Shown here piece by piece: positions 732 to 43,935 of a stretch of 47,833 nucleotides of DNA. Location of the stretch: UHGV virus genome UHGV-0111856, one strand, 5' to 3'. Within the stretch, counting starts at the first letter, position 1. Each line of letters begins with the position of its first letter. The notes under the pieces are model-generated. The model was not told the origin of the DNA and searched no databases. It saw only the letters and a program-made list of their open reading frames with translations. This DNA is from a virus. The translations under genes were made by a program, and so were the position numbers.

Positions 732-1817
732 TTACAGCGCGGTTTGCGTGCCGTAGCCGTTGAAAACTTTGCTTCGACCATTGAAATCCTTACGGATTTG
801 CAGGCCCATAGCAGCCCAGGTCAGGAAGTTAAAGTTAGCGTGCGGCGTGGTGCGCGGCTCTGCATAGGTTGATACTGGCTGAGCGACGCGAGGGCGGATG
901 TACAGCGCATTCTTCACATAGCCGACGAAATGGTTCCCGGTCAGCTTGAAGTTGGTGCCGATAGACGCGATGCGGCCAACATTGCCGGTTTTGCCGAATG
1001 CGAGGATATAATCCTCAATGGTGCCGCCTTTGAAACCTGCCGCGTTGGAGTACGGGCGGCTGAAGGAACGGCGCACAGATGGAGAAACCCACAGAGTAAC
1101 CGGCTCGAACACGTTCTGTGCATCGAGAACCGCCTGGAAATCCTGGTTGAAGAACTCAACGATTTTATCAGGAGTTGCCGTTTGCAGGTCGATATTCAGG
1201 CCGGGGGAATCGGCGCTCAGGTTAACCTGAATGGTGTTCGGGTGGTTGGTGATACCGTAACCAGTGTACACGCCGTTCACGTTCAGGCTTGCATCGCCGA
1301 CCAGCAGATAATCAGCCATGTCTGCGCGCAGGTTGAAGGTGGTGTTTTCCTGGTCATCAATCAGCGGGTCGAAACCTTCAGACTGCATGCCCAGCAGTTC
1401 ACGCCACTCACGGCCATAACCGGTTTTGAAGATCGGGATTACATCGCCGCTGTAGGAGTAGCGAGTTTTATCCAAATCTTCCGGTTCCTGACCGGAGATG
1501 GTGCGTACAACCTTACCAGCATCGGAGGCCATGCGACTAATTGCCACGGTCTTACCGATGTTGATGTTGGTCGCCAGCGTCATCAGGTCGGCCATCATAT
1601 CCTGACCAGCTTCGTTGCGGAAAACGCGGGTGGTGACGTTATCCACGTCGCGCCAGTAATCTTTCGTTACCAGTGCGGTGGCGTTAACACCGTAGGTTTT
1701 CGCCAGTTCAGCTTCTGCATTGCAGAACACTTTACGGTCGATGGTGAGATGTTTCCACTGGTCAGCCACCACTGCGGAGTTGGCTACCAAGTCTTTGGTA
1801 AAAATAATCTTTTCCAT
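732..1817 (-). CDS. major capsid protein
   Basis: 361 aa; strong AGGAG RBS; follows protease/scaffold and decoration genes; terminator directly downstream (typical of a highly expressed capsid gene). Confidence 0.65.
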   Translation of the reverse strand: MEKIIFTKDLVANSAVVADQWKHLTIDRKVFCNAEAELAKTYGVNATALVTKDYWRDVDNVTTRVFRNEAGQDMMADLMTLATNINIGKTVAISRMASDAGKVVRTISGQEPEDLDKTRYSYSGDVIPIFKTGYGREWRELLGMQSEGFDPLIDDQENTTFNLRADMADYLLVGDASLNVNGVYTGYGITNHPNTIQVNLSADSPGLNIDLQTATPDKIVEFFNQDFQAVLDAQNVFEPVTLWVSPSVRRSFSRPYSNAAGFKGGTIEDYILAFGKTGNVGRIASIGTNFKLTGNHFVGYVKNALYIRPRVAQPVSTYAEPRTTPHANFNFLTWAAMGLQIRKDFNGRSKVFNGYGTQTAL

Positions 1818-3570: not shown

Positions 3571-3608
3571 GTTAACTCCGAGTGTTTTTTTGATATGTGG
3601 ATTATATC

Positions 3609-5006
3609 ATGCCGAAGAAGATGACGATTGATGAACTCAAAGAAAAGCTGCGTAGCGTTCATGGCGAGACGTATGAGTATGATTTTTATACCTTCCATGG
3701 CTGCCACTCACCAATGAAAATAGTATGCAAAAAGCATGGGGAATTCTGGCAAAAGCCATCCAAACACCTTCATGGTCAGGGGTGTGCAAAGTGCCAAAAG
3801 GGCGTCATTTCTGTCGATGATTTTAAATCAATGGCTTCCGCTGTTCACAGAGGAAAATATGACTATAGCAAGGTTTTTTTTGAAACGTTTTCTCGGGAAA
3901 AGGTAACAATCGGATGCCCGATCCATGGGTGGTTTGAGCAAGGAGCCTACATTCACCTGAAACGTGGTAATGGATGCCCAAGGTGCGGGGATGAGAGTTC
4001 GAGGAAAGCAAAGATCAAAATGTTCGGTGATTTTGTTGATGATGCGAAATGCATCCATGGAGATAAATATGAGTATTCACCGAATGGGTTTACTGGTTCC
4101 CGAGGCAAGATTAATATCTTATGCCCTGTGCATGGGGAGTTTACTCAGGGTGCAGCAAATCATCTTGCTGGGAATGGGTGCCCATCGTGCGCTGGAGTAA
4201 TGTCAAACGCAGAAGCCGATATCCTTGCATTTGTTAAGTCACTAGACCCATATGCAATCAGTAGGGATAGAGCGACGATAGCGCCATATGAACTTGATAT
4301 AGTCTCAAAATCCAAATCATTAGCCATAGAGGTAAACGGCGTGTACTGGCACTCGGAGAAGGTCGGGAAAGATAGGCTTTATCACAGAATGAAGAGGGAG
4401 AGGGTTGAAGCGTCTGGAATGAGATTAATAAGCATAAGAAGCGATATCTGGAGAGATAAAGAAGATTTGGTCAAATTAATAATAATGAATGCCATGGGCT
4501 GTAGGCCTAATGAAAACATAAACGCAAGAGAATGCGTCGTTAAAGAAGTATCAAGTCGTGATTCTAGGGATTTTCTTGATGCACATCACGTGATGGGTGG
4601 AAAGAACGCCAGCAGGCATTTCGGGCTGTTCAATGGTGATGATTTAGTTTCAGTTATGACTTTCACGATAAAATCAGGCGCAACAGAGCTTGTGAGGTTT
4701 GCGTCGAAGTGCAACGTTAGAGGCGGGCTTACCAAGATGCTAAAAAACTGCTCTTCAATCATCGGGTTTGACAGGTGCTTTAGTTATGTTGATCTTGATT
4801 TGTTTACTGGCAAGTCATACATAGCGGCAGGATTTAAACCAGTTAGCATAAAGCCAGGATTTGGCATAGTTAATGGCAGTAATGTAGAGTCAAGACAGAA
4901 ATGGAACAAGGCGCCGAAAGGTATGACCCAAACAGAATGGTACGAATCTGAGGGTGTTAGCAGGATATGGGACAGCGGACAGATGAGAATAGAGTGGAGT
5001 AGATAA
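3609..5006 (+). CDS. homing-endonuclease-like protein: 3 tandem zinc-ribbon repeats + PD-(D/E)xK (Vsr/DUF559-like) nuclease domain
   Basis: three repeats of pattern HG-x-Y-x-Y...CP-x-HG-x-F-x-Q...H-L-x-G-x-GC-x-x-C; then ELDIVSK...EVNGVYWHS...R motif block; opposite strand to flanking late genes; own terminator. The ORF track starts at GTG 3597; I moved the start to ATG 3609. Confidence 0.55.
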   Translation: MPKKMTIDELKEKLRSVHGETYEYDFYTFHGCHSPMKIVCKKHGEFWQKPSKHLHGQGCAKCQKGVISVDDFKSMASAVHRGKYDYSKVFFETFSREKVTIGCPIHGWFEQGAYIHLKRGNGCPRCGDESSRKAKIKMFGDFVDDAKCIHGDKYEYSPNGFTGSRGKINILCPVHGEFTQGAANHLAGNGCPSCAGVMSNAEADILAFVKSLDPYAISRDRATIAPYELDIVSKSKSLAIEVNGVYWHSEKVGKDRLYHRMKRERVEASGMRLISIRSDIWRDKEDLVKLIIMNAMGCRPNENINARECVVKEVSSRDSRDFLDAHHVMGGKNASRHFGLFNGDDLVSVMTFTIKSGATELVRFASKCNVRGGLTKMLKNCSSIIGFDRCFSYVDLDLFTGKSYIAAGFKPVSIKPGFGIVNGSNVESRQKWNKAPKGMTQTEWYESEGVSRIWDSGQMRIEWSR

Positions 5007-5823: not shown

Positions 5824-6281
5824 GAATGGCGCGCCCCGGCAAGCAACTTTTCAAACATCATCCTGTCACGGCTCATGCCAAACGGGATAATCTCCTGCCA
5901 GTAATATTTCCATGCGCCGCCAGGAAGCATTTCACGGTCAACCTGACCAATGCTTGCCAGATAGCGCATGCGTGCCTTGAGGATGGTGTAGTTGACGCCG
6001 ACAGCTTCTGCTATCTGCTTGCTCTTGCGTCCCGGATTTGCCTCAAGATACGTCTGAATTGCCAAATCGAGCGCGGTATTATCGGGATTGAGGAAATACT
6101 TAAAGCAGCGCCTGCCATGGCTTACGCTTTCCTCTTTAATAATAAATCCCATGCCCTCAAGCTCAATCAGATAACCAGTAACGCTGGCTCGGTTTGTCAT
6201 GCCAGTCTGCTTGCGTATCATGGCATTGGTTGCGCCGCCGCAGCGCTCTATCACCGTGAGTATTTGAGTTTTAAAGTCCAT
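5811..6281 (-). CDS. winged-helix DNA-binding protein (two HTH-like segments)
   Basis: start moved to ATG 6281 (GGAG RBS 8 nt upstream, 11-nt overlap with upstream gene); the ORF-track start at 6335 is a GTG. Confidence 0.5.
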   Translation of the reverse strand: MDFKTQILTVIERCGGATNAMIRKQTGMTNRASVTGYLIELEGMGFIIKEESVSHGRRCFKYFLNPDNTALDLAIQTYLEANPGRKSKQIAEAVGVNYTILKARMRYLASIGQVDREMLPGGAWKYYWQEIIPFGMSRDRMMFEKLLAGARHSCGQ

Positions 6282-6507
6282 GTTTACGCTCCAGTGCATC
6301 ATGCTTGTAGTCTTCGACCGTGTATAGCTGGCCACCCCTGGTATTCCATGACCTCACCGCGGTGCAAAGGCGGAGATATTCGCCACCTTTCTTTCCGCAA
6401 TCATTACACTCAATAATCCACGCCGAACCCTTTACGCAGGCGTAAACATCAAGGCTCCCGCATTTATGGCACTCAAGCAGCCCATTGCTGCCCATCATTG
6501 GTTTCAT
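6271..6507 (-). CDS. Lar-family-like zinc-ribbon protein (possible restriction alleviation)
   Basis: 78 aa with C-x2-C ... C-x2-C (LECHKCGS ... ECNDCGKKG) pattern typical of Lar-like proteins. Confidence 0.4.
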   Translation of the reverse strand: MKPMMGSNGLLECHKCGSLDVYACVKGSAWIIECNDCGKKGGEYLRLCTAVRSWNTRGGQLYTVEDYKHDALERKHGL

Positions 6508-6919: not shown

Positions 6920-7085
6920 TTTTTCTCTCCATCAGCACTTTGTAGTGAACGCCATAATACTTGAGCACCTGACTATGGTTGTGCAGATACCCGTCATCAT
7001 CTTCAATCGGTAGTCTTACCACGATGTAAAACGCCCGGTAGAGTTCTGTCCATCCATGACAACATTTGCGCTTCCTCGGCTTCAT
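6909..7085 (-). CDS. possible small protein (MKPRKRK...), overlaps 7003-7218 in another frame
   Basis: stop overlaps start of downstream gene; doubtful because it overlaps 7003-7218 by 83 nt. Confidence 0.25.
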   Translation of the reverse strand: MKPRKRKCCHGWTELYRAFYIVVRLPIEDDDGYLHNHSQVLKYYGVHYKVLMERKNDY

Positions 7086-7218
7086 GGGCGGCCTCCATAG
7101 CAGCCAGGTCAATGCGCTGCTCGATAGATTTAATGATTGACTCTGGAACATTAAGCATTTGCAGAGTCTCCCGGCAATCGCGCTTATGAACCTCTGTCAC
7201 CTCCTGCCACTTCTTCAT
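7003..7218 (-). CDS. hypothetical protein (71 aa)
   Basis: ATGA overlap with HNH gene stop. Confidence 0.45.
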   Translation of the reverse strand: MKKWQEVTEVHKRDCRETLQMLNVPESIIKSIEQRIDLAAMEAAHEAEEAQMLSWMDRTLPGVLHRGKTTD

Positions 7219-7736
7219 TCCACACCACCTTTTATCATTCTTTTTGGCCTATTGATTCCATGGTTTTCATGGAAACCATATTTCATTTCAGCTTCAAGTC
7301 TGGCCTTTATTGCTTCGCTCTTTTCTGAAAAGCGACCTAAGTGCAGCCTTGTTCCGTTTAAGACTATTTGCGCGTACCACTTGCCGCGCTTTTTATCAAA
7401 ACAAACACCAACAACACCACTGGTGTTGTCGCTCCTGATTGAACTGTTTCTCGTGTTTTCTCTCCTGTTAACAAGCCTGAGATTCTCTATTCGGTTGTCA
7501 TCTCTGATGTGGTTGATGTGATCAATTTCCATGTCTTCCGGTATTGGTCCGTTAAATAGCTCCCAAACAATCCTGTGCTCATATGTCTGGGTGTATTTTA
7601 CTTTTACCTTTCGATAACCTGTCGTTGGCTCCAGGCACCCAATCCTTGCGCCAGCCTTTACGTTGTTTGACGGCTTAACCTTCCAGTAAAGCTTGCCGTT
7701 TTCGTAAACAAACAAGTCAATAAAGTTCATATCCAC
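7215..7736 (-). CDS. HNH-AP2 homing endonuclease (HNH_3 type)
   Basis: motif EIDHINHIRDDNRIENLRLVNRRENTRN followed by AP2-type DNA-binding domain (GVVGVCFDKKRGKWYAQI...GRF); paralog of 25380-25853 and 28309-28875. Confidence 0.8.
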   Translation of the reverse strand: MDMNFIDLFVYENGKLYWKVKPSNNVKAGARIGCLEPTTGYRKVKVKYTQTYEHRIVWELFNGPIPEDMEIDHINHIRDDNRIENLRLVNRRENTRNSSIRSDNTSGVVGVCFDKKRGKWYAQIVLNGTRLHLGRFSEKSEAIKARLEAEMKYGFHENHGINRPKRMIKGGVE

Positions 7737-7755
7737 ATCACTCGCATTAAGATGT

Positions 7756-7797
7756 TATAATCTACAACACCTAGTATTGACTAATTGACGTAGATTA
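7756..7797. promoter_or_regulatory. divergent promoter region with TTGACGTAGATT module and 8-bp inverted repeat TAATCTAC/GTAGATTA
   Basis: TTGACG 7785-7790 + TAGATT 7791-7796 on plus strand 45 nt upstream of the 7826 start; mirrored GTAGATTATAAC on minus strand upstream of 7736. Confidence 0.4.
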
Positions 7798-7825
7798 GTC
7801 AAGATGATTTCACAGGAGAGCGACA

Positions 7826-8026
7826 ATGGCGAGACAACGCAAAGAACCACTGGAAGTACTGACTGAGATTATCGCTAAGCGCCAGCCGTTAAGCCTGCGA
7901 GATGTCAGATATTACGCGCACTGCTATGTAGCAATGCGGGAATGGAGCGCTGAAGAAATGTATGAGTTTGTGCGTGAGCACTTCAGCGTGGATGAGAAAA
8001 ACAAGGTTACATTGAGAGGTGAGTGA
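7826..8026 (+). CDS. hypothetical protein (66 aa)
   Basis: GGAG RBS; first gene of a plus-strand cassette. Confidence 0.5.
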   Translation: MARQRKEPLEVLTEIIAKRQPLSLRDVRYYAHCYVAMREWSAEEMYEFVREHFSVDEKNKVTLRGE

Positions 8027-8577
8027 TGAAATACAAATACCTGAAGGGGAGTGCTGATTATTTTAATGGTCATGAAGATGCCGTTCTTGTTGTGAAATCA
8101 GCAACCAGTGGCAAAATCTACTACCTCAGCGCGGATTATGCAGGGCGAGACAAGGATATCGAAAAGGCTGGCGATATTGTTATCGCCCATCGTGAGCCAA
8201 TCGCTGACGAAGATAATTTGAATGGATGCGCCAGTTCACCAGGATGCCGCGTGAAAGCTGGTGAATTGATAATGGACGGCAAGTGGCATGATGCCAACAT
8301 TGGCGGCAGTGATGAAACAGAAGCCCTCATCACCGAGCGCGGCACTCGCTACGGGAAGTTCAAAGACGGTGCAGATATCATGCAATCACTGAAGGATACC
8401 ATGCGCGACGTTGACGGCTGGAATAACCTGACGGCAAGCCAGAAGGAGGCGCTCGACATGATTCAGCATAAAATAGGCCGCATCCTGAATGGCGACCCGA
8501 CATACGACGATAGCTGGAAAGACATTGCTGGCTATGCAACATTAATTGTTAATGAACTGAATGGGGAGATTAAGTGA
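8026..8577 (+). CDS. hypothetical protein (183 aa)
   Basis: TGATG stop-start overlap, GGTGAG RBS. Confidence 0.5.
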   Translation: MKYKYLKGSADYFNGHEDAVLVVKSATSGKIYYLSADYAGRDKDIEKAGDIVIAHREPIADEDNLNGCASSPGCRVKAGELIMDGKWHDANIGGSDETEALITERGTRYGKFKDGADIMQSLKDTMRDVDGWNNLTASQKEALDMIQHKIGRILNGDPTYDDSWKDIAGYATLIVNELNGEIK

Positions 8578-8789
8578 TGGCAACGCAAGACCCCATGCCA
8601 CGCATTGAAATTGATATGGTGGAGTTTCATGAACCAGCAACGCGAGATTATCATATCCCGAGGTTAGGCGAACCAGCAGCCTACATCATCACCAGCAATC
8701 GTGGTCGCCGATATCTGGCATTTGCTGGTAGTGTTGAGCATCAGAATGCAGCCATGTTTGGCTATGAGATGAAACCACTATACGAATGA
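8577..8789 (+). CDS. hypothetical protein (70 aa)
   Basis: TGATG overlap, GGGGAG RBS. Confidence 0.5.
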   Translation: MATQDPMPRIEIDMVEFHEPATRDYHIPRLGEPAAYIITSNRGRRYLAFAGSVEHQNAAMFGYEMKPLYE

Positions 8790-8798
8790 GGTGTAAAA

Positions 8799-9053
8799 AT
8801 GTCTTTAAGCTTTGGTGAGGCATTAGAGGAGATGGAGATTGGATGCAAGGTCGCAAGAAGCGGGTGGAATGGAAAGGGTATGTTCCTGTTCATGATAGCA
8901 GGGGGAGCATGGGATTTTGAGTGCGACATTGATGGGGTTGACGGGCTTAATACGCTACCTTTTATCTGCATGAAAACGGCTGATGGGAAACTGGTGCCAT
9001 GGCTGGCAAGCCAAACCGATATGATCGCTAGCGACTGGATGGTTATTAGTTGA
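8799..9053 (+). CDS. DUF2829-like small protein (Tad2 anti-Thoeris sponge family candidate)
   Basis: 84 aa; N-terminal F-GEAL-x-M-x-G-x-KVAR-x-GWNGKG and C-terminal KTADGKLVPWLASQTDMIASDW blocks resemble the DUF2829 signature from memory; AGGTG RBS; terminator follows. Confidence 0.5.
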   Translation: MSLSFGEALEEMEIGCKVARSGWNGKGMFLFMIAGGAWDFECDIDGVDGLNTLPFICMKTADGKLVPWLASQTDMIASDWMVIS

Positions 9054-9054
9054 C

Positions 9055-9085
9055 AGCAAAGCCCCTTTATGGGGCTTTTTTATTG
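9055..9085 (+). terminator. rho-independent terminator
   Basis: AAAGCCCC-tttat-GGGGCTTT + TTTTTATT. Confidence 0.7.
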
Positions 9086-9235
9086 CTACAGGAATTGGGG
9101 TGCAGGGCCATATTCATCCTTTGCCGACTTGCTATACCGGCTTTTGCGTGCTGGTTGATAACCAGCCCTGCCTGACGCCACATTAGACGCCATCTTGTTG
9201 TATTTTTGCTTTGCGATGTCTTCTTTCATATCATC

Positions 9236-9484
9236 TCACTTGCCAAAATTGTCACGATACCAATCCTGCCAGTCGTAAATCGTCATCTTTCTTTTCGTGG
9301 CACATTCCGTGTTCTGGTTCTCCATAACGATGCTTTCGTCGCTATTTTTTGGCGCCACTTTCGACAATTCGCACACCTGACCCAGCATCTCTGCTGACGG
9401 AGGCGTCGGCGTCGAGGGATTGTTGGCGCAACCGCTGATAGTTGTCATCAAAAACACACACATTACGATTCGGGTCGGAGACAT
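9236..9484 (-). CDS. o-spanin (Rz1-like outer-membrane lipoprotein), overlapped architecture
   Basis: lipobox LMTTISGC, Pro-rich mature region; begins inside the i-spanin gene in another frame and extends past its stop. Confidence 0.6.
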   Translation of the reverse strand: MSPTRIVMCVFLMTTISGCANNPSTPTPPSAEMLGQVCELSKVAPKNSDESIVMENQNTECATKRKMTIYDWQDWYRDNFGK

Positions 9485-9722
9485 ATTTCACCACGTCACG
9501 GTAAATGGTTTTGTATTTGGTTTCAGTCACAACGCGTACCTGCTGAGATTGCGTCGTGGACTTAGCCTGCTTGCTTTGCGCCTCCTGCCTGCGCTTTTCT
9601 GCATCACGATTAACTTTTTCGCTGTGCGCATACCACCCTTTCAGGTATCCAGTGCCATAACCAGATGCGGCAATGATTACCGCGACGCCTATGGCGATTA
9701 GAATTAACTTAATTCTGGTCAT
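9342..9722 (-). CDS. i-spanin (Rz-like)
   Basis: N-terminal transmembrane segment then charged coiled-coil periplasmic domain; follows holin. Confidence 0.65.
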   Translation of the reverse strand: MTRIKLILIAIGVAVIIAASGYGTGYLKGWYAHSEKVNRDAEKRRQEAQSKQAKSTTQSQQVRVVTETKYKTIYRDVVKYVSDPNRNVCVFDDNYQRLRQQSLDADASVSRDAGSGVRIVESGAKK

Positions 9723-9942
9723 TTTTCAGCGCCTTAATCTCTTTCTTCATGCCGTGCATTTTTCCAAACAGCGAGGCAAGAAGGATACTGTAGCTGATCG
9801 CCTTGACCGCAATGGGCGGAATGGCAGACTTGAGGTCTTCAGGCATGAAAGCCCATACGTGAACCATGGCGTCAGGCCAGAGCTGAATCAGCGAGCAGAA
9901 TGACGCCCAAATGCCGATAAGCCAGTTACTGAGGCGCCTCAT
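9709..9942 (-). CDS. holin (two TMD, class II/pinholin-like)
   Basis: 77 aa, two hydrophobic helices and a charged C-terminus; between endolysin and spanins. Confidence 0.5.
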   Translation of the reverse strand: MRRLSNWLIGIWASFCSLIQLWPDAMVHVWAFMPEDLKSAIPPIAVKAISYSILLASLFGKMHGMKKEIKALKNDQN

Positions 9943-10376
9943 GACATGTAGACCTGACGTTCTGCCGCCCGGCGCTTGGTGAGTCCGTTCATGACCTTGC
10001 CATTAGCGCGATTCCATACCCGGAACTGGTCAGCGGCGCAGGTATAGCAGCGGGCGTTATGCTTTTTCAGAAGCGTTGATTTGCCAAAGTTACCAAGTCC
10101 GATGTTATAGGCCAGCGACACCATTGCATCAAACTGGCCCTGAGTTGTTGGAGCGGTGACGAGTGACGAAACGCCGCTTTCAAATTTCGCTACGTCTTTA
10201 TCAAACCATGCGTCAGCCATTGCCTGCGTGACCTTCATTCCCGGCTTAACGTCGCTTCCGGTATGACCGTATCCAGCAGTGTACGGAGCGCCTCCGGTTG
10301 CCGGGTCGGGGTAGACTGCAAGCACCAACCCCTCATGAGATTTAATTAAATTCTTTCCGCACGTTGATAGTTTCAT
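9939..10376 (-). CDS. endolysin, GH24 phage lysozyme
   Basis: HEGLVLAVYPDPATGGAPYTAGYGHT catalytic E-D-T triad region of the T4-lysozyme family; AGGT RBS; no signal-anchor, so soluble. Confidence 0.85.
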   Translation of the reverse strand: MKLSTCGKNLIKSHEGLVLAVYPDPATGGAPYTAGYGHTGSDVKPGMKVTQAMADAWFDKDVAKFESGVSSLVTAPTTQGQFDAMVSLAYNIGLGNFGKSTLLKKHNARCYTCAADQFRVWNRANGKVMNGLTKRRAAERQVYMS

Positions 10377-11896: not shown

Positions 11897-12841
11897 TCAG
11901 GTGGCTTTCTTGTGTGTGTCCTGCCATGCTTCACGCTGCTTATCGAGTCTTTCCTGCGTTTTTTCAAGTATCACAGGCTTGCCATCCATCACCAGTGCTG
12001 GGGTTTGCGCACAGTGGCAGTTACGGCGGTTTGCGCCTTCGCTGTAGAACTCATCAATCTCTTCAGGGGTGTAATACTTCCCATGACGAGCGGCATGAGT
12101 GACGCGGGTGGTTTTCATTAGCGCCGACTGCCAGAGCATGATGGTGTCCATACCCAGCGTGACTTGCGCCTCTTTCACTTCGCGCCTGTTAGCCTCGCGC
12201 AGGGTGTTGGTGATTTCAGTCTGAGCAATGGAGCGCGCATAGCTCCTTGATACATCCATGCGGTTAACGATGTTTTGTTCAACCACTCCAGGAGCGTCGC
12301 CATTTGCAATGCCAGCAGTGATGACTTCCGCCACCTGTTGCCGCGTGTAATCTGAAAGGCCACCCCAATCGTTATACGTGCGCGTATACGCAAGTTGAAG
12401 CCTGTCGAGATAAGGCTGAGAGTACAGGATTTCAGCAAGCGGCCTGGTGTCTTTGTATGCCGACGACAGGTCGCCAAGGTCTGAGTTGGCCTTCTGCGTA
12501 CCGGCATACATGGCGTCGCTGACGTAGGATGATGCCCACATCCGTCCATGCGTGAAATCATCGCCTTCCAGCAACTGATTATCAAGAATGCGCTGAAGCT
12601 CATCAAAGAATGTCGATGCGCGGTAGGCAGAGAAATCATAATAATAATTTCCAGCCTCAGCATTACCGGTTGCCACAGGAATAGTGCGGAACAACCCGGC
12701 AACCTGCGATTTTAGCGTCACATATCTGGCGTCAACATCACGCACCATCTTATTGACGCGACCCACTGCGCCGAGCGGGTCTGTCAGGCTCATGCTTAAT
12801 TTTGGCTGCGGAAGCCGGGCATTAATTTTGAGGAGGCGCAT
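11897..12841 (-). CDS. minor head / head morphogenesis protein, SPP1 gp7 / Mu F family
   Basis: C-terminal block [14 protein letters not shown]...HGKYYTPEE...RRNCHC typical of the Phage_Mu_F domain; immediately downstream of portal with 20-nt overlap. ORF track starts at 12940 but that start lies inside the portal gene. Confidence 0.75.
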
Positions 12842-14252
12842 CGGTCTGGCCCTGCTGTTGGTCTTGCTGCTGACCTTCCTGTAATCCGTCAGGAAGCTGC
12901 TCTTCCAGAGGCTCCATACCAACAATTCCGCGCATCTCATCTGCGGTCATCAGGGCCATCTGGCCCGCATCGAATACGGATTTGTTTGCAGCGGCAAGTT
13001 TGACCAGCAGGTCGGCCTTGTTCAGTTCGGAAGGTGCAAGCAGGTCATCCCATTTGCAGTAATAACCGCTCTCTGGCGCTTTATCCAGAATGCCAAAGGA
13101 AATCATCCGGTCAATGAACACCGAAATGATGTAATCCAGCCAGTCTTCGCGGCGCTGCTTGGCGCTCATGGCGTCGTCGGTTTTATCCTCATCGGATGCA
13201 AGGCGGCCAGTTTGCTGACCAAACAGGATGGTGAATGGCTTCTTGATGGATGCCGCAAACTGGTTGGCTGCAATAGTCCACGTCGGGCTCGGGTCTGCTG
13301 GTGTCACTGAGAGTACTTTGACATCAGCGCCCATCGTGAACATCGCCGCGTCAATCGCCTCATTCAGGCGCGCCACATCCTCATTGAGCACATCTGCCAG
13401 CTCTTCCAGTGGCACATCCATTTGCTGCGCCAGAGACCGAGCGGAAACTGACTCTTTGTTGTAGTTAACATTTAGCTGTCGGCTTGCATTCTTCAGGAAG
13501 CCCTCGGCGCTTGAGCCGGTTACTTTCGCCATGTCGATGAGATGGTTATACCCGGCACGCAGAAGCGGAACGCCAGAGTAAATCGAGCCATCCATCGCAC
13601 CCTCGGCAAATACGATAATGCGATCGGGATGAATGCTCAGGGAACGTGTTGGTTTGCCGTCGCTGTTGCGGGCGCCGACTACCGACTCCTGATATTCGTA
13701 CATCTTCGGTTGACCATAGTCCTCGCTGGATTCGTCATTTTCCCATTCACTTACGCGGAGCTGCTCTTCCCATGCCGGAATGTAGCGGACAATGGCAGCA
13801 TCCTTGATGCGTTTTGTTTTCGTGATGTCTACCGGCTCATTCCACTGCTTTCCGTCACGGATTTGTAGTATGAGGCCGGAGTAGCGATTGATGAGGTTGC
13901 GGCGGTCTGCATCCTTGATAAATGGCGCAGCGCGCTTAAACAGCTTATTGGCAGCTTTCTCCCACGGAGTGCTTGCTTTATCATCGGCACCTTCCTGAAG
14001 GATTTGCGGCGGAGTCTGCCAGCACTTATCGAGTACGCGGTTAACGCCAGCTGTTGCCGGTGCATAGCGCTCATAGGCATAGCGGAACATCTCGGCGGTG
14101 ATTTCTTCAGGGTAGCCGCATTCGACCCACAGCCTGTCGTGTTTGTGGTCGATGTTCTTCCCACCAAACTCCCGACGCTGCCGCTCGATGAGCCTGTTAT
14201 TGTTCGCCACTCGCTGCTGAATATAGGCGTTTACCGCCTCTAACTTTGACAT
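12822..14252 (-). CDS. portal protein
   Basis: 476 aa, acidic/Gln-rich C-terminus; lies between terminase and the Mu-F-like gene. Confidence 0.65.
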
Positions 14253-14261
14253 TTCGTCACC

Positions 14262-14292
14262 ATAAAAAATCCCATCGCATGGATGGGATTAT
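14262..14292 (-). terminator. rho-independent terminator (minus strand) upstream of portal
   Basis: AATCCCAT-7nt-ATGGGATT; T-run on the minus-strand reading. Confidence 0.55.
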
Positions 14293-14299
14293 AGCATGG

Positions 14300-17275: not shown

Positions 17276-17290
17276 CGAGGGCTTTTTCTT
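17262..17290. terminator. bidirectional terminator between HNH gene and terminase gene ends
   Basis: GCCCTC-tagc-GAGGGC with T-runs on both strands. Confidence 0.6.
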
Positions 17291-18713
17291 ATCTCCTGCT
17301 TCTCCTAATCCATCCAGAGCCACGCTGCACAATGTGGTCTCCAAGGCCATAGCGCAAACTATCTGTGGCGTGGTTGTGCTTGTCGATGATATCAGGAAGT
17401 ATATTTCCCGTGAGCTTGTCCACTTTGTAGCTGTAAAGAGTAAACTCCTCAATGACAGTCTTACATCTTTCGTGAACAAAAATCCTGTCACAACCCCTGA
17501 GCCATGTGATTCCGTCCTCAATGCTGCCCGGCCACTTTGCGCACGGATGGATATCAAATCCTGAGCGCTTTATATGGCTTATTGTTTCTGGCCTTGCGCA
17601 GTCACCATACCATCTGTATTTTTCTGAACCCGGGAATGCCAGTCGCATAGCTTCTGGCGTATCAGTTATCTCAAGACCAACCTTTGCAAAGTCGCGGTAG
17701 ATATACAGGTTTCTTCTTCCGCCGCCCAAATCCTCGACATAAGATTCAGTTGCTGCCGTAGCATCCTGCGAGAAACCAAAGTCAATGCCATAGTAAGGCC
17801 CTCCCCAATCTGGCGATGGCTCAAAATCAAGAGTCTGCCATTTACCCCCAAGCACGGCCTCATCTGAGCGCCGGTTAAACAGTCCCTCATAAACCCACAG
17901 ATAGCGGTCATAATCTACCGCCTTCATTTGGTTCATGTGCTGTTTAAGTTCCTCAGTAAACCACGGGTTATGGATGTAGTTGACATTTACAACGACAATA
18001 TCATCATCCTGATATATCCCGTCTACCATCTTATCAACATATGGCTCAACAAAGTTTGTCCACGTGGGGTCAGTTTCGCGGTTGGGGTTAAAAACAATAA
18101 TAATTTCAGAACCTGACGCGCGAACCGTTGGGATGAGCGTGTCCCATGACACCTGGCTTATATTCTCGGACTCTTCGCAGAACACGTCAGTAAGCCCCGC
18201 CATCCCTTTAATGGCCGTGATATTGCGCCACATGCCCCTGAACACGAACTTTGACCGTGTGCCATAGTGCGTTATCTCGCCATCAACGCAGCGATATTCT
18301 TGCGCGTGGCCCTTCCTGTTGATTTCATCAACAAGCTCTGTGTAGCTTGATTGCTTGATTGAGTTCTGAATTTCCCGGAAGCAGCCAACCCTGCAATTTC
18401 TGAACCTTGCCTTTTCGATAAGATAGGAAACGACGTTAGCCGTTTTGCCGCTGCCCCTTCCGCCATAGAAGACCTTAAACCGGCGCGGATAAAGCAAAAG
18501 CTCCATGCGTTCAGGGATTAGTATTGTTGGCTCTTCAGTTGTCTCTGATACGCCATCCTGAGTCATTTTAAGTCGCTTGATAACATTTGGCGTGCCATCT
18601 TCAAGCAGCTTATCGACAATGCCGAAAACAGCAGAGTCAGGCTTCTCTATGGAGTTACCAACCGCTTCTTCCAGCTTTTCGATTGCCAGTGCAGAGAGGC
18701 GCTTACGAGCCAT
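17289..18713 (-). CDS. terminase large subunit
   Basis: Walker A YGGRGSGKT, C-terminal nuclease-like region; ATG at 18713 chosen (ORF-track start 18731 is TTG). Confidence 0.85.
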   Translation of the reverse strand: MARKRLSALAIEKLEEAVGNSIEKPDSAVFGIVDKLLEDGTPNVIKRLKMTQDGVSETTEEPTILIPERMELLLYPRRFKVFYGGRGSGKTANVVSYLIEKARFRNCRVGCFREIQNSIKQSSYTELVDEINRKGHAQEYRCVDGEITHYGTRSKFVFRGMWRNITAIKGMAGLTDVFCEESENISQVSWDTLIPTVRASGSEIIIVFNPNRETDPTWTNFVEPYVDKMVDGIYQDDDIVVVNVNYIHNPWFTEELKQHMNQMKAVDYDRYLWVYEGLFNRRSDEAVLGGKWQTLDFEPSPDWGGPYYGIDFGFSQDATAATESYVEDLGGGRRNLYIYRDFAKVGLEITDTPEAMRLAFPGSEKYRWYGDCARPETISHIKRSGFDIHPCAKWPGSIEDGITWLRGCDRIFVHERCKTVIEEFTLYSYKVDKLTGNILPDIIDKHNHATDSLRYGLGDHIVQRGSGWIRRSRR

Positions 18714-18858
18714 GGCGGGATGTTCCCACAATAGTAATTATTGTTGCTGACATCATGAACATGATGCCCCATATCGCAGATGCAATATCGTTTGACTTAT
18801 CACCCATAGCAAACATGAGCATGGCACAGACCATTAGTGACATTGATAGTTTAAACAT
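18703..18858 (-). CDS. possible 51-aa membrane peptide between small and large terminase genes
   Basis: start embedded in TerS stop (AATGTTTAA), stop overlaps TerL start; Met-rich and hydrophobic; could be spurious. Confidence 0.3.
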   Translation of the reverse strand: MFKLSMSLMVCAMLMFAMGDKSNDIASAIWGIMFMMSATIITIVGTSRHGS

Positions 18859-37309: not shown

Positions 37310-37442
37310 AGCAGTCTCCATTTTGTATTGTTGTATTTTAGCACGTTGATGGTACAATCACAGTGCAGCTAGTCCGGCCAGACGAAAAGCGATTGGTTAT
37401 CGCCTGCTGCATCACTTCAAACCACCTTTAACCGAGGAATCA

Positions 37443-42336: not shown

Positions 42337-42373
42337 GTCTAAATCCTGTTTTCATAATGACGTAATTATACCA

Positions 42374-43895: not shown

Positions 43896-43935
43896 ATTAT
43901 ATCATGTTGACAGGTTTTTATTGGTGGTGTAGATT
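43896..43935. promoter_or_regulatory. overlapping divergent promoters: plus TTGACA-N17-TAGATT (tRNA/leader) and minus extended -10 TGATATAAT (major tail gene)
   Basis: TTGACA 43907-43912, TAGATT 43930-43935; minus-strand TGATATAAT = complement of 43896-43904. Confidence 0.55.

Follow-up and report, generated by a model that had tools for sequence, protein, structure and literature searches.

The virus genome UHGV-0111856 was analysed over its whole stretch of 47,833 nucleotides (nt), referred to below as the window, which corresponds to an essentially complete genome of ~48 kb. On its plus strand, at 7826-9053, lies a cassette of four small genes, the last of which encodes a relative of Tad2, i.e. 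the sponge protein directed against the Thoeris defence system. An original prediction, made from the DNA letters and their open reading frames (ORFs), had described this cassette as a candidate anti-defence island; the four plus-strand ORFs that it gave, of 66, 183, 70 and 84 amino acids (aa), are correct in size and layout:

7826-8026, plus strand: gene 1, ORF of 66 aa matching phrog_14963
8026-8577, plus strand: gene 2, 183 aa counted from ATG, with a GTG present at 8023
8577-8789, plus strand: gene 3, 70 aa counted from ATG
8799-9053, plus strand: gene 4, 84 aa, Tad2-like (DUF2829)

These genes form one short operon. The gene pairs 1/2 and 2/3 share ATGA overlaps, suggesting translational coupling, and gene 4 starts 9 nt after gene 3, preceded by a Shine-Dalgarno sequence of its own (GAGGTG). 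The phage belongs to the T1-like (Webervirus-like) Klebsiella siphoviruses, and genes 1-3 are conserved within this phage group. The cassette region was matched by 71 phage records, mostly from siphoviruses of Klebsiella, Salmonella or Escherichia with genomes of 45-49 kb, and complete E. coli genomes gave no match to the cassette DNA.

The proposed assignment of the 84-aa protein to the Tad2-like DUF2829 family was confirmed by the Pfam profile PF11195 ('Thoeris anti-defense 2-like domain'), which matches with 89.3 bits against a cut-off of 25 (E = 2.4e-25) over profile positions 2-73 of 73, and both sequence blocks quoted in the original prediction are exactly present in the product. A phmmer search against PDB sequences retrieved HgmTad2/AcrIIA7 (1e-18), ModTad2 (8e-18), SPO1 Tad2 (7e-17) and SptTad2 (2e-16), with no significant match besides Tad2 proteins, another AcrIIA7 entry included. 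With 9.2 kDa and an isoelectric point of 4.1, the protein is small and acidic; it has 1979 homologues, with PF11195 found in all among the matches listed. Its AlphaFold2 model, built with a 53-sequence alignment as input, reached a predicted local distance difference test (pLDDT) score of 93.8 and has the topology of Tad2, i.e. an N-terminal helix and an antiparallel sheet (helices at residues 5-13 and 72-76; strands at 17-20, 29-33, 55-59, 65-67 and 80-83). When this model was compared with the PDB by Foldseek, the best 24 matches were all Tad2 chains (E from 9e-9 to 5e-7, template-modelling (TM) scores of 0.70-0.88), and the first non-Tad2 match followed at E = 0.57, i.e. as noise. The two outcomes named beforehand as speaking against the assignment, i.e. 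no match to a DUF2829 profile hidden Markov model (HMM) or a fold unlike that of Tad2, were thus both looked for, and neither occurred. By its sequence and predicted fold, the gene 4 product is clearly a member of the Tad2/DUF2829 family in its short form.

Conservation extends to the residues that hold the ligand. In SPO1 Tad2, 1''-3' glycocyclic ADP-ribose (gcADPR, also called 3'cADPR) is contacted by W25, N26, W73, D79, T78, I63 and T65, with water-mediated contacts from D67, H71 and S76 (Yirmiya et al., 10.1101/2023.05.01.538930). By pairwise alignment, these ten residues correspond, in the same order, to W23, N24, W68, D74, T73, M58, T60, D62, V66 and S71 of the gene 4 product. In HgmTad2, the gcADPR contacts are W21, N22, G23, M76, A78, T82, V84, W87, L88, S90, T92 and D93, and the exchanges W21A/N22A and S90A/T92A/D93A reduced gcADPR binding (Li et al., PMC10680739). 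Ten of these 12 contacts are identical in the gene 4 product (W21, N22, G23, M76, V84, W87, L88, S90, T92 and D93), and the stretch WLASQTD is the same in both proteins. Across the 53 homologues, W23, N24, G25, M58, T60, P67, W68, L69, S71 and D74 are invariant, while position 73 is occupied by T in 41, S in nine and A in three. The elements used for tetramerisation, i.e. alpha-1 (FGEAL) and beta-2 (MFLF), are the same in SPO1 Tad2 and the gene 4 product. Considering the SQTD pocket, and that ModTad2, which does not take the type I signal, differs at eight of 13 pocket positions, 3'cADPR is the best guess for the ligand; it is a guess because Tad2 homologues bind very different signals.

HgmTad2 and SptTad2 have a second pocket, for cyclic dinucleotides, that is made by an insertion of 35-41 residues between beta2 and beta5 (PMC10680739). 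The corresponding insertion of the gene 4 product counts only 22 aa, and the contacts of HgmTad2 to the cyclic dinucleotide cGG are unmatched, i.e. R31 is replaced by I33, N85 falls into a gap, and S47 and F70 lie in a stretch missing from the gene 4 product. Because of the short insertion and these four unmatched residues, binding of cGG or cGAMP in the manner of HgmTad2 is not expected. Within the insertion (residues 33-54; window 8895-8945), a motif W-x-F-x-x-D-x-x-G-V-D is kept across the enterobacterial-phage clade but not in more distant homologues. The insertion reads A-W-D-F-E-C-D-I-D-G-V-D-G-L in this enterobacterial short-Tad2 clade and is located in the second-pocket region of HgmTad2 and ModTad2. 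The 22-aa insertion may form an interface or a second pocket.

Gene 4 is a rare accessory addition to the 3' end of the operon, present in some relatives and absent from others. Among the 71 records with the cassette, only Tbat1_6, AB4P2 and VLCpiS13c carry a Tad2-like gene at this locus, and the same arrangement is found on a metagenomic contig of 47,973 bp. In the otherwise collinear Klebsiella phage KpnS_VR6602, gene 4 is missing and genes 1-3 are followed by the same terminator. Unrelated Klebsiella podoviruses and Klebsiella chromosomes contain homologues with 65-72% identity, which fits a host-linked accessory gene. The guanine and cytosine (GC) content of gene 4 and its GC content at third codon positions (GC3) are like those of the neighbouring genes, and therefore give no compositional sign of recent transfer. 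Between the locus orthologues of Tbat1_6, AB4P2 and VLCpiS13c, the ratio of non-synonymous to synonymous substitution rates (dN/dS) is 0.05-0.09 where dS is unsaturated, i.e. gene 4 is under strong purifying selection. One of these records, OR544125.1 ('Acinetobacter phage vB_AbaM_AB4P2'), is labelled as an Acinetobacter myovirus, yet it has the same operon and lysis cassette as the Klebsiella T1-like siphoviruses; its host or morphotype label may be wrong.

With regard to transcription, a promoter had been proposed at 7785-7796 (TTGACGTAGATT). The string is present, yet its hexamers TTGACG (7785-7790) and TAGATT (7791-7796) abut, i.e. the spacer is 0, whereas the sigma-70 criterion applied here places the -35 and -10 hexamers 16-18 nt apart. 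Therefore, TTGACGTAGATT is not a sigma-70 promoter as written. A consensus scan returned TCCACA-18-TATAAT with a TG extension at 7732-7761, and the control elements of the operon are as follows:

7732-7737, plus strand: possible -35 element TCCACA, from the scan
7753-7761, plus strand: candidate extended -10 element TGTTATAAT, predicted from scan and conservation
7777-7802, no strand assigned: inverted repeat TTGACTAA-N10-TTAGTCAA, conserved leader or operator-like, enclosing TTGACGTAGATT
9058-9084, plus strand: intrinsic terminator, 8-bp G+C-rich stem at 9058-9078, then TTTTTT

In four related phages, the extended -10 element is kept as TGTTATAAT or TGGTACAAT, in which TGnTAyAAT is constant and the flanking bases differ, and an alignment of the four shows the stretch from 7761 to the start codon of gene 1 (7761-7825) to be almost invariant. 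In the window, 11 copies of the motif TGNTAYAAT are present, compared with 3.7 +/- 1.7 copies expected, and none of 100 shuffled sequences contained as many as 11. Several of the genomic copies precede a gene on the matching strand, at a distance of 25-90 nt from its start. This roughly threefold excess and the placement before gene starts suggest that the phage relies on extended -10 promoters. The sites span 2694-47649 and include 3601-3609, 14288-14296, 42365-42373 and 43896-43904 on the minus strand as well as 37350-37358 on the plus strand. Based on the scan, the conserved extended -10 sequence and the motif enrichment, 7753-7761 is likely to be the promoter element of the operon, with transcription predicted to start near 7768.

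The inverted repeat at 7777-7802 occurs once in the genome and is overlapped by a minus-strand promoter-like site, TTGACT-18-AATACT (7802-7773), found in the scan. In two of the four phages, one of its arms carries an A-to-C change that would break a pair. A structured RNA leader was considered for this repeat and rejected, since its fold is no better than that of shuffles (z = -1.5) and the natural variant breaks a pair. An HNH endonuclease gene (7215-7736, minus strand; PF13392, 75 bits, plus an AP2-like domain) adjoins the cassette promoter region. KpnS_VR6602 shares this gene, but it is absent in Tbat1_6 and VLCpiS13c, where a 71-aa gene homologous to 7003-7218 is the direct neighbour of the intergenic region; the HNH gene looks like a homing-endonuclease insertion.

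The terminator claimed at 9055-9085 was recovered as the hairpin at 9058-9078 and its T-run, with a fold energy of -15.2 kcal/mol (z = -2.6); on the minus strand the hairpin reaches -16.6 kcal/mol. Three related phages share its sequence without a change, whether gene 4 is there or not, and it sits at the convergence with the minus-strand lysis operon. Just past this shared terminator, a conserved basic 47-aa ORF (9086-9229, minus strand) ends the lysis operon; it has no family match and is called 'hypothetical protein' in relatives.

As had been stated, the cassette is opposite in strand to the late region that surrounds it, flanked on the right by terminase, portal, head-morphogenesis and lysis genes and on the left by capsid genes, each of which is encoded on the minus strand. 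The tail genes, identified by PHROG matches, are also on the minus strand. The landmarks are:

732-1817, minus strand: virion structural (head/packaging) protein, PHROG match
9342-9722, minus strand: ORF at the position of the Rz-like spanin of relatives, without a Pfam match here
9709-9942, minus strand: DUF7940 protein, called holin in relatives
9939-10376, minus strand: lysozyme of the lysis cassette
11897-12940, minus strand: head-morphogenesis gene, PHROG match
12822-14252, minus strand: portal, PHROG match
17289-18731, minus strand: terminase, PHROG match

By analogy with the characterised Tad2 proteins, we consider it likely that the gene 4 product is a tetrameric sponge for the ADP-ribose (ADPR) signals made by TIR proteins, and that it counters Thoeris in Klebsiella; four of five Tad2 homologues tested inhibit type I Thoeris. 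In such a scenario, the host RNA polymerase would probably transcribe the operon from the extended -10 promoter at ~7753-7761, ending at 9058-9084, and the gene 4 product would assemble into a homotetramer with two inter-protomer pockets, as SPO1 Tad2 and HgmTad2 do. Upon infection, the ADP-ribose-derived signal of the Thoeris TIR proteins would be captured and held in these pockets, with 3'cADPR as the presumed ligand, a ThsA-type effector would stay off, and the phage cycle would be completed in Thoeris-carrying Klebsiella. The timing of expression and the anti-Thoeris phenotype would likewise be those of the family.

Several points weigh against this interpretation. Our literature search found no biochemical or genetic test of the gene 4 product or of a close homologue, and one of the five homologues first tested failed to block type I Thoeris. 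Moreover, the ligands of Tad2 proteins vary and comprise 3'cADPR, histidine-ADPR (His-ADPR), N7-cADPR, cyclic UMP and cyclic CMP (cUMP/cCMP) as well as cyclic dinucleotides (PMC12393519), and the gene 4 product is about equidistant (37-45% identity) from SPO1 Tad2, ModTad2, HgmTad2 and SptTad2. Finally, gene 4 lies inside the late/lysis block and its promoter is a predicted one, whereas a sponge needs early expression.

The diversity of ligands also leads to an alternative that we regard as unlikely, namely that the gene 4 product is a Tad2 sponge whose main or additional ligand is other than 3'cADPR, i.e. His-ADPR (type II), N7-cADPR (type IV), or a cyclic mono- or dinucleotide held in the insertion pocket. 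Tad2 homologues are known to inhibit CBASS, Pycsar and three Thoeris types, many of them more than one, and one of these homologues is active against type I, II and IV Thoeris alike (PMC12393519). ModTad2 scores against the gene 4 product as well as SPO1 Tad2 does, an enterobacterial prophage (Tatumella) encodes a member of the ModTad2 clade that is able to block type II Thoeris, and the clade-conserved insertion motif lies where HgmTad2 and ModTad2 have their second-pocket region. On the other hand, the pocket carries SQTD as in the 3'cADPR binders SPO1 Tad2 and HgmTad2, as opposed to SVSD in ModTad2, and the insertion is short and lacks the cGG contacts of HgmTad2. It is tempting to speculate, albeit doubtful, that the clade insertion allows binding of a further or altogether different signal (such as N7-cADPR, His-ADPR or a cyclic pyrimidine), and separately that the phrog_34266 protein, which corresponds to the core of gene 3, might act together with Tad2 or might itself be an anti-defence protein that has gone unrecognised. 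If true, an insertion-based specificity would make the enterobacterial short-Tad2 clade a multi-system sponge.

The original prediction had extended the anti-defence role to the whole cassette, which it saw as an anti-defence island of typical layout. That genes 1-3 are immunity inhibitors too, coordinated with gene 4, seems improbable to us. The proteins are small and mostly acidic and are encoded in one operon, the 3' part of which varies between relatives. However, searches of Pfam, PHROGs, NCBIfam and PADLOC related none of genes 1-3 to a named family of anti-defence or defence proteins, the latter two databases returning no match for any cassette protein, and genes 1 and 2 look like backbone genes. 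Gene 4 is the only recognisable anti-defence gene in the cassette, compared with the two or more clustered ones by which an island is defined, and, of the anti-defence genes known, about two thirds occur singly rather than in islands (PMC11370490). Genes 1-3, in which the original prediction saw no recognisable motifs, matched nothing informative other than DUF6378 in gene 2 and unnamed PHROG families.

Gene 1 matches phrog_14963 (4.8e-40), without a match in Pfam, NCBIfam or PADLOC, and has homologues in 207 phage records, all of T1-like enterobacterial phages (Salmonella, Klebsiella, Escherichia). Gene 2 has 1445 homologues and a constant position in every related locus examined. Given these numbers and the fixed position, genes 1 and 2 look like backbone genes of T1-like phages rather than accessory ones; their near-universal presence in the phage group is unlike the strain-variable occurrence typical of anti-defence genes.

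According to the alignment, the gene 2 protein consists of a conserved N-terminal domain (~1-60), a hypervariable linker (~61-97) and a C-terminal DUF6378 domain (99-174). DUF6378 (PF19905) is matched by residues 95-183 alone with 29.4 bits against a cut-off of 27.1, while the whole protein reaches 26.8 bits. This domain is found in 6503 representative clusters (50% identity), alone or fused to varied unrecognised sequences, with no other Pfam domain in the longer proteins, and it has a strongly conserved signature, i.e. ERGxRYGxF...HKIGRILNGDPxYxDSWxDIAGY. In the DUF6378 part (residues 95-183; window 8308-8574), distant representatives share 50-65% identity, with invariant F, K, R, N, G, Y and D positions; being widespread and well conserved, DUF6378 is a good target for structural work. 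The linker (window 8206-8316), by contrast, is hypervariable in length and sequence among orthologues of 155-202 aa that are otherwise 75-95% identical, and several distinct variants recur. The AlphaFold model of the gene 2 product is poor (pLDDT 60.4; linker 62-118 below 50), and the Foldseek check that had been suggested for it gave no PDB match below E = 1.4. A fold search against BFVD returned only other DUF6378 proteins besides two non-significant matches, one with the label 'Nucleotide modification associated domain 1' (E = 0.076) and one a dATP/dGTP diphosphohydrolase N-terminal-domain protein (E = 0.85), both of which were discarded. When the PDB was searched with profiles from two alignments, only TRF2 was matched, by chance (E about 0.3-0.5), and a MazG-like nucleotide pyrophosphatase, considered for DUF6378 on account of four predicted helices and conserved acidic residues, was dropped since no support was found. 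In the literature, the mentions of DUF6378 that we found merely list the domain, with no function.

Gene 3 matches phrog_34266 (7e-15) over residues 31-70, i.e. its C-terminal core of 40 aa, and in relatives this core corresponds to ORFs of 48-49 aa. Counterparts in N4-like Schitoviridae are ORFs of ~50 aa with 55-65% identity (L008:1980-2138 and L007:2001-2132). In those phages, the phrog_34266 ORF, which is unannotated in phage 24-32N, is located two genes upstream of a 162-aa DUF2829/Tad2-like gene. The proximity of phrog_34266 to DUF2829 genes in both T1-like and N4-like phages shows that the linkage recurs in an unrelated phage family, which speaks in favour of an island.

The variable part of the operon, i.e. 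its 3' end from the DUF6378 gene to the fixed terminator, is a slot whose small genes change from phage to phage, with operons of three to six genes in relatives. The extra genes in these relatives are all of unknown function, which argues against an island as well; as genes 1-3 give no informative match either, the island reading rests on one gene. Outside the cassette, a 78-aa ORF on the minus strand (6271-6507) gives a weak Lar match of 17.1 bits, and its counterparts in relatives are annotated as Lar-like; it is possibly an anti-restriction gene in a divergent block of small genes. Lying 1.3 kb away from the cassette, it would add to an island, but its match is under the Pfam cut-off of 28.6 bits.

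Very unlikely is a DUF2829 fold kept without any anti-defence role, be it as a decayed passenger or with another function. Some tested homologues inhibited no system, and many DUF2829 domains make up the C-terminus of longer proteins whose role is not known (phrog_1048, phrog_872). Against this, gene 4 shows strong purifying selection and has its own strong Shine-Dalgarno sequence, and nine of the ten ligand-contact residues are invariant across the 53 homologues. Klebsiella is not known for type II-A Cas9 systems, which counts against an anti-CRISPR function. An AcrIIA7-type anti-CRISPR is extremely improbable, even though AcrIIA7 (i.e. HgmTad2) is the best PDB sequence match and homologues are labelled 'anti-CRISPR protein' in some phage records, as Cas9 inhibition by HgmTad2 or other Tad2 homologues was not reproduced in vitro or in vivo (Li et al., PMC10680739) and the family has been argued to be anti-Thoeris, not anti-CRISPR (Yirmiya et al.).

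The Tad2 family, its fold and its mode of action have already been described, and gene 4 does not represent a new mechanism. A protein with 97.6% identity is already deposited as DUF2829, and UniRef names homologues 'Thoeris anti-defense 2-like'. What our analysis adds is a well-supported Tad2-family member, and predicted sponge, in the T1-like Klebsiella phages, a group often considered for phage therapy. Since few members of this group have gene 4, nature provides a comparison by which to see if the host range in Klebsiella is restricted by Thoeris. In addition, the 3' end of the operon, as a slot for the exchange of accessory genes, is a sensible place to seek new counter-defence genes.

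In comparison with known systems, the closest relatives are the same-locus orthologues of Flyfo siphovirus Tbat1_6 (UIW10255.1), AB4P2 and VLCpiS13c, with 97.6%, 95.2% and 79.5% identity, respectively. Their operon and terminator are the same, without a functionally notable difference, and the records label the gene 4 orthologues only as 'DUF2829' or 'hypothetical protein'.

Among the characterised proteins, SPO1 Tad2 (Gp34.65; PDB 8SME/8SMF/8SMG, 8WJE) resembles the gene 4 product in size (89 aa compared with 84), fold (Foldseek TM 0.70-0.84, 42-46% identity) and the short beta2-beta5 insertion, which has 24 residues there and 22 here, the insertion sequences being unrelated. Nine of its ten listed ligand contacts are identical or conservative in the gene 4 product; H71, with its water-mediated contact, is replaced by V66, and I63 by M58. 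The two also differ in origin, i.e. a Bacillus myovirus for SPO1 and a T1-like siphovirus of a Gram-negative host here, where the protein is known from sequence and model. HgmTad2/AcrIIA7 (PDB 8KBI-8KBM) is the best sequence match and has an almost identical gcADPR pocket, but differs by its 41-residue insertion, as compared with 22 residues here, with the second pocket for cGG and 3'3'-cGAMP. ModTad2 from a Myroides odoratus prophage (PDB 8V3E, 9EIB) binds His-ADPR and cUMP and does not block type I Thoeris. It is alike in fold (top Foldseek match, E = 8.9e-9), is of similar length and has an identical WNGKGMF loop, but the pocket region differs at the eight of 13 aligned positions mentioned above (LALKTVDNDIATWTPSVSD vs FICMKTADGKLVPWLASQTD). 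With 37-40% identity, the gene 4 product is no closer to the ModTad2 clade than to SPO1 Tad2, and it carries SQTD instead of SVSD.

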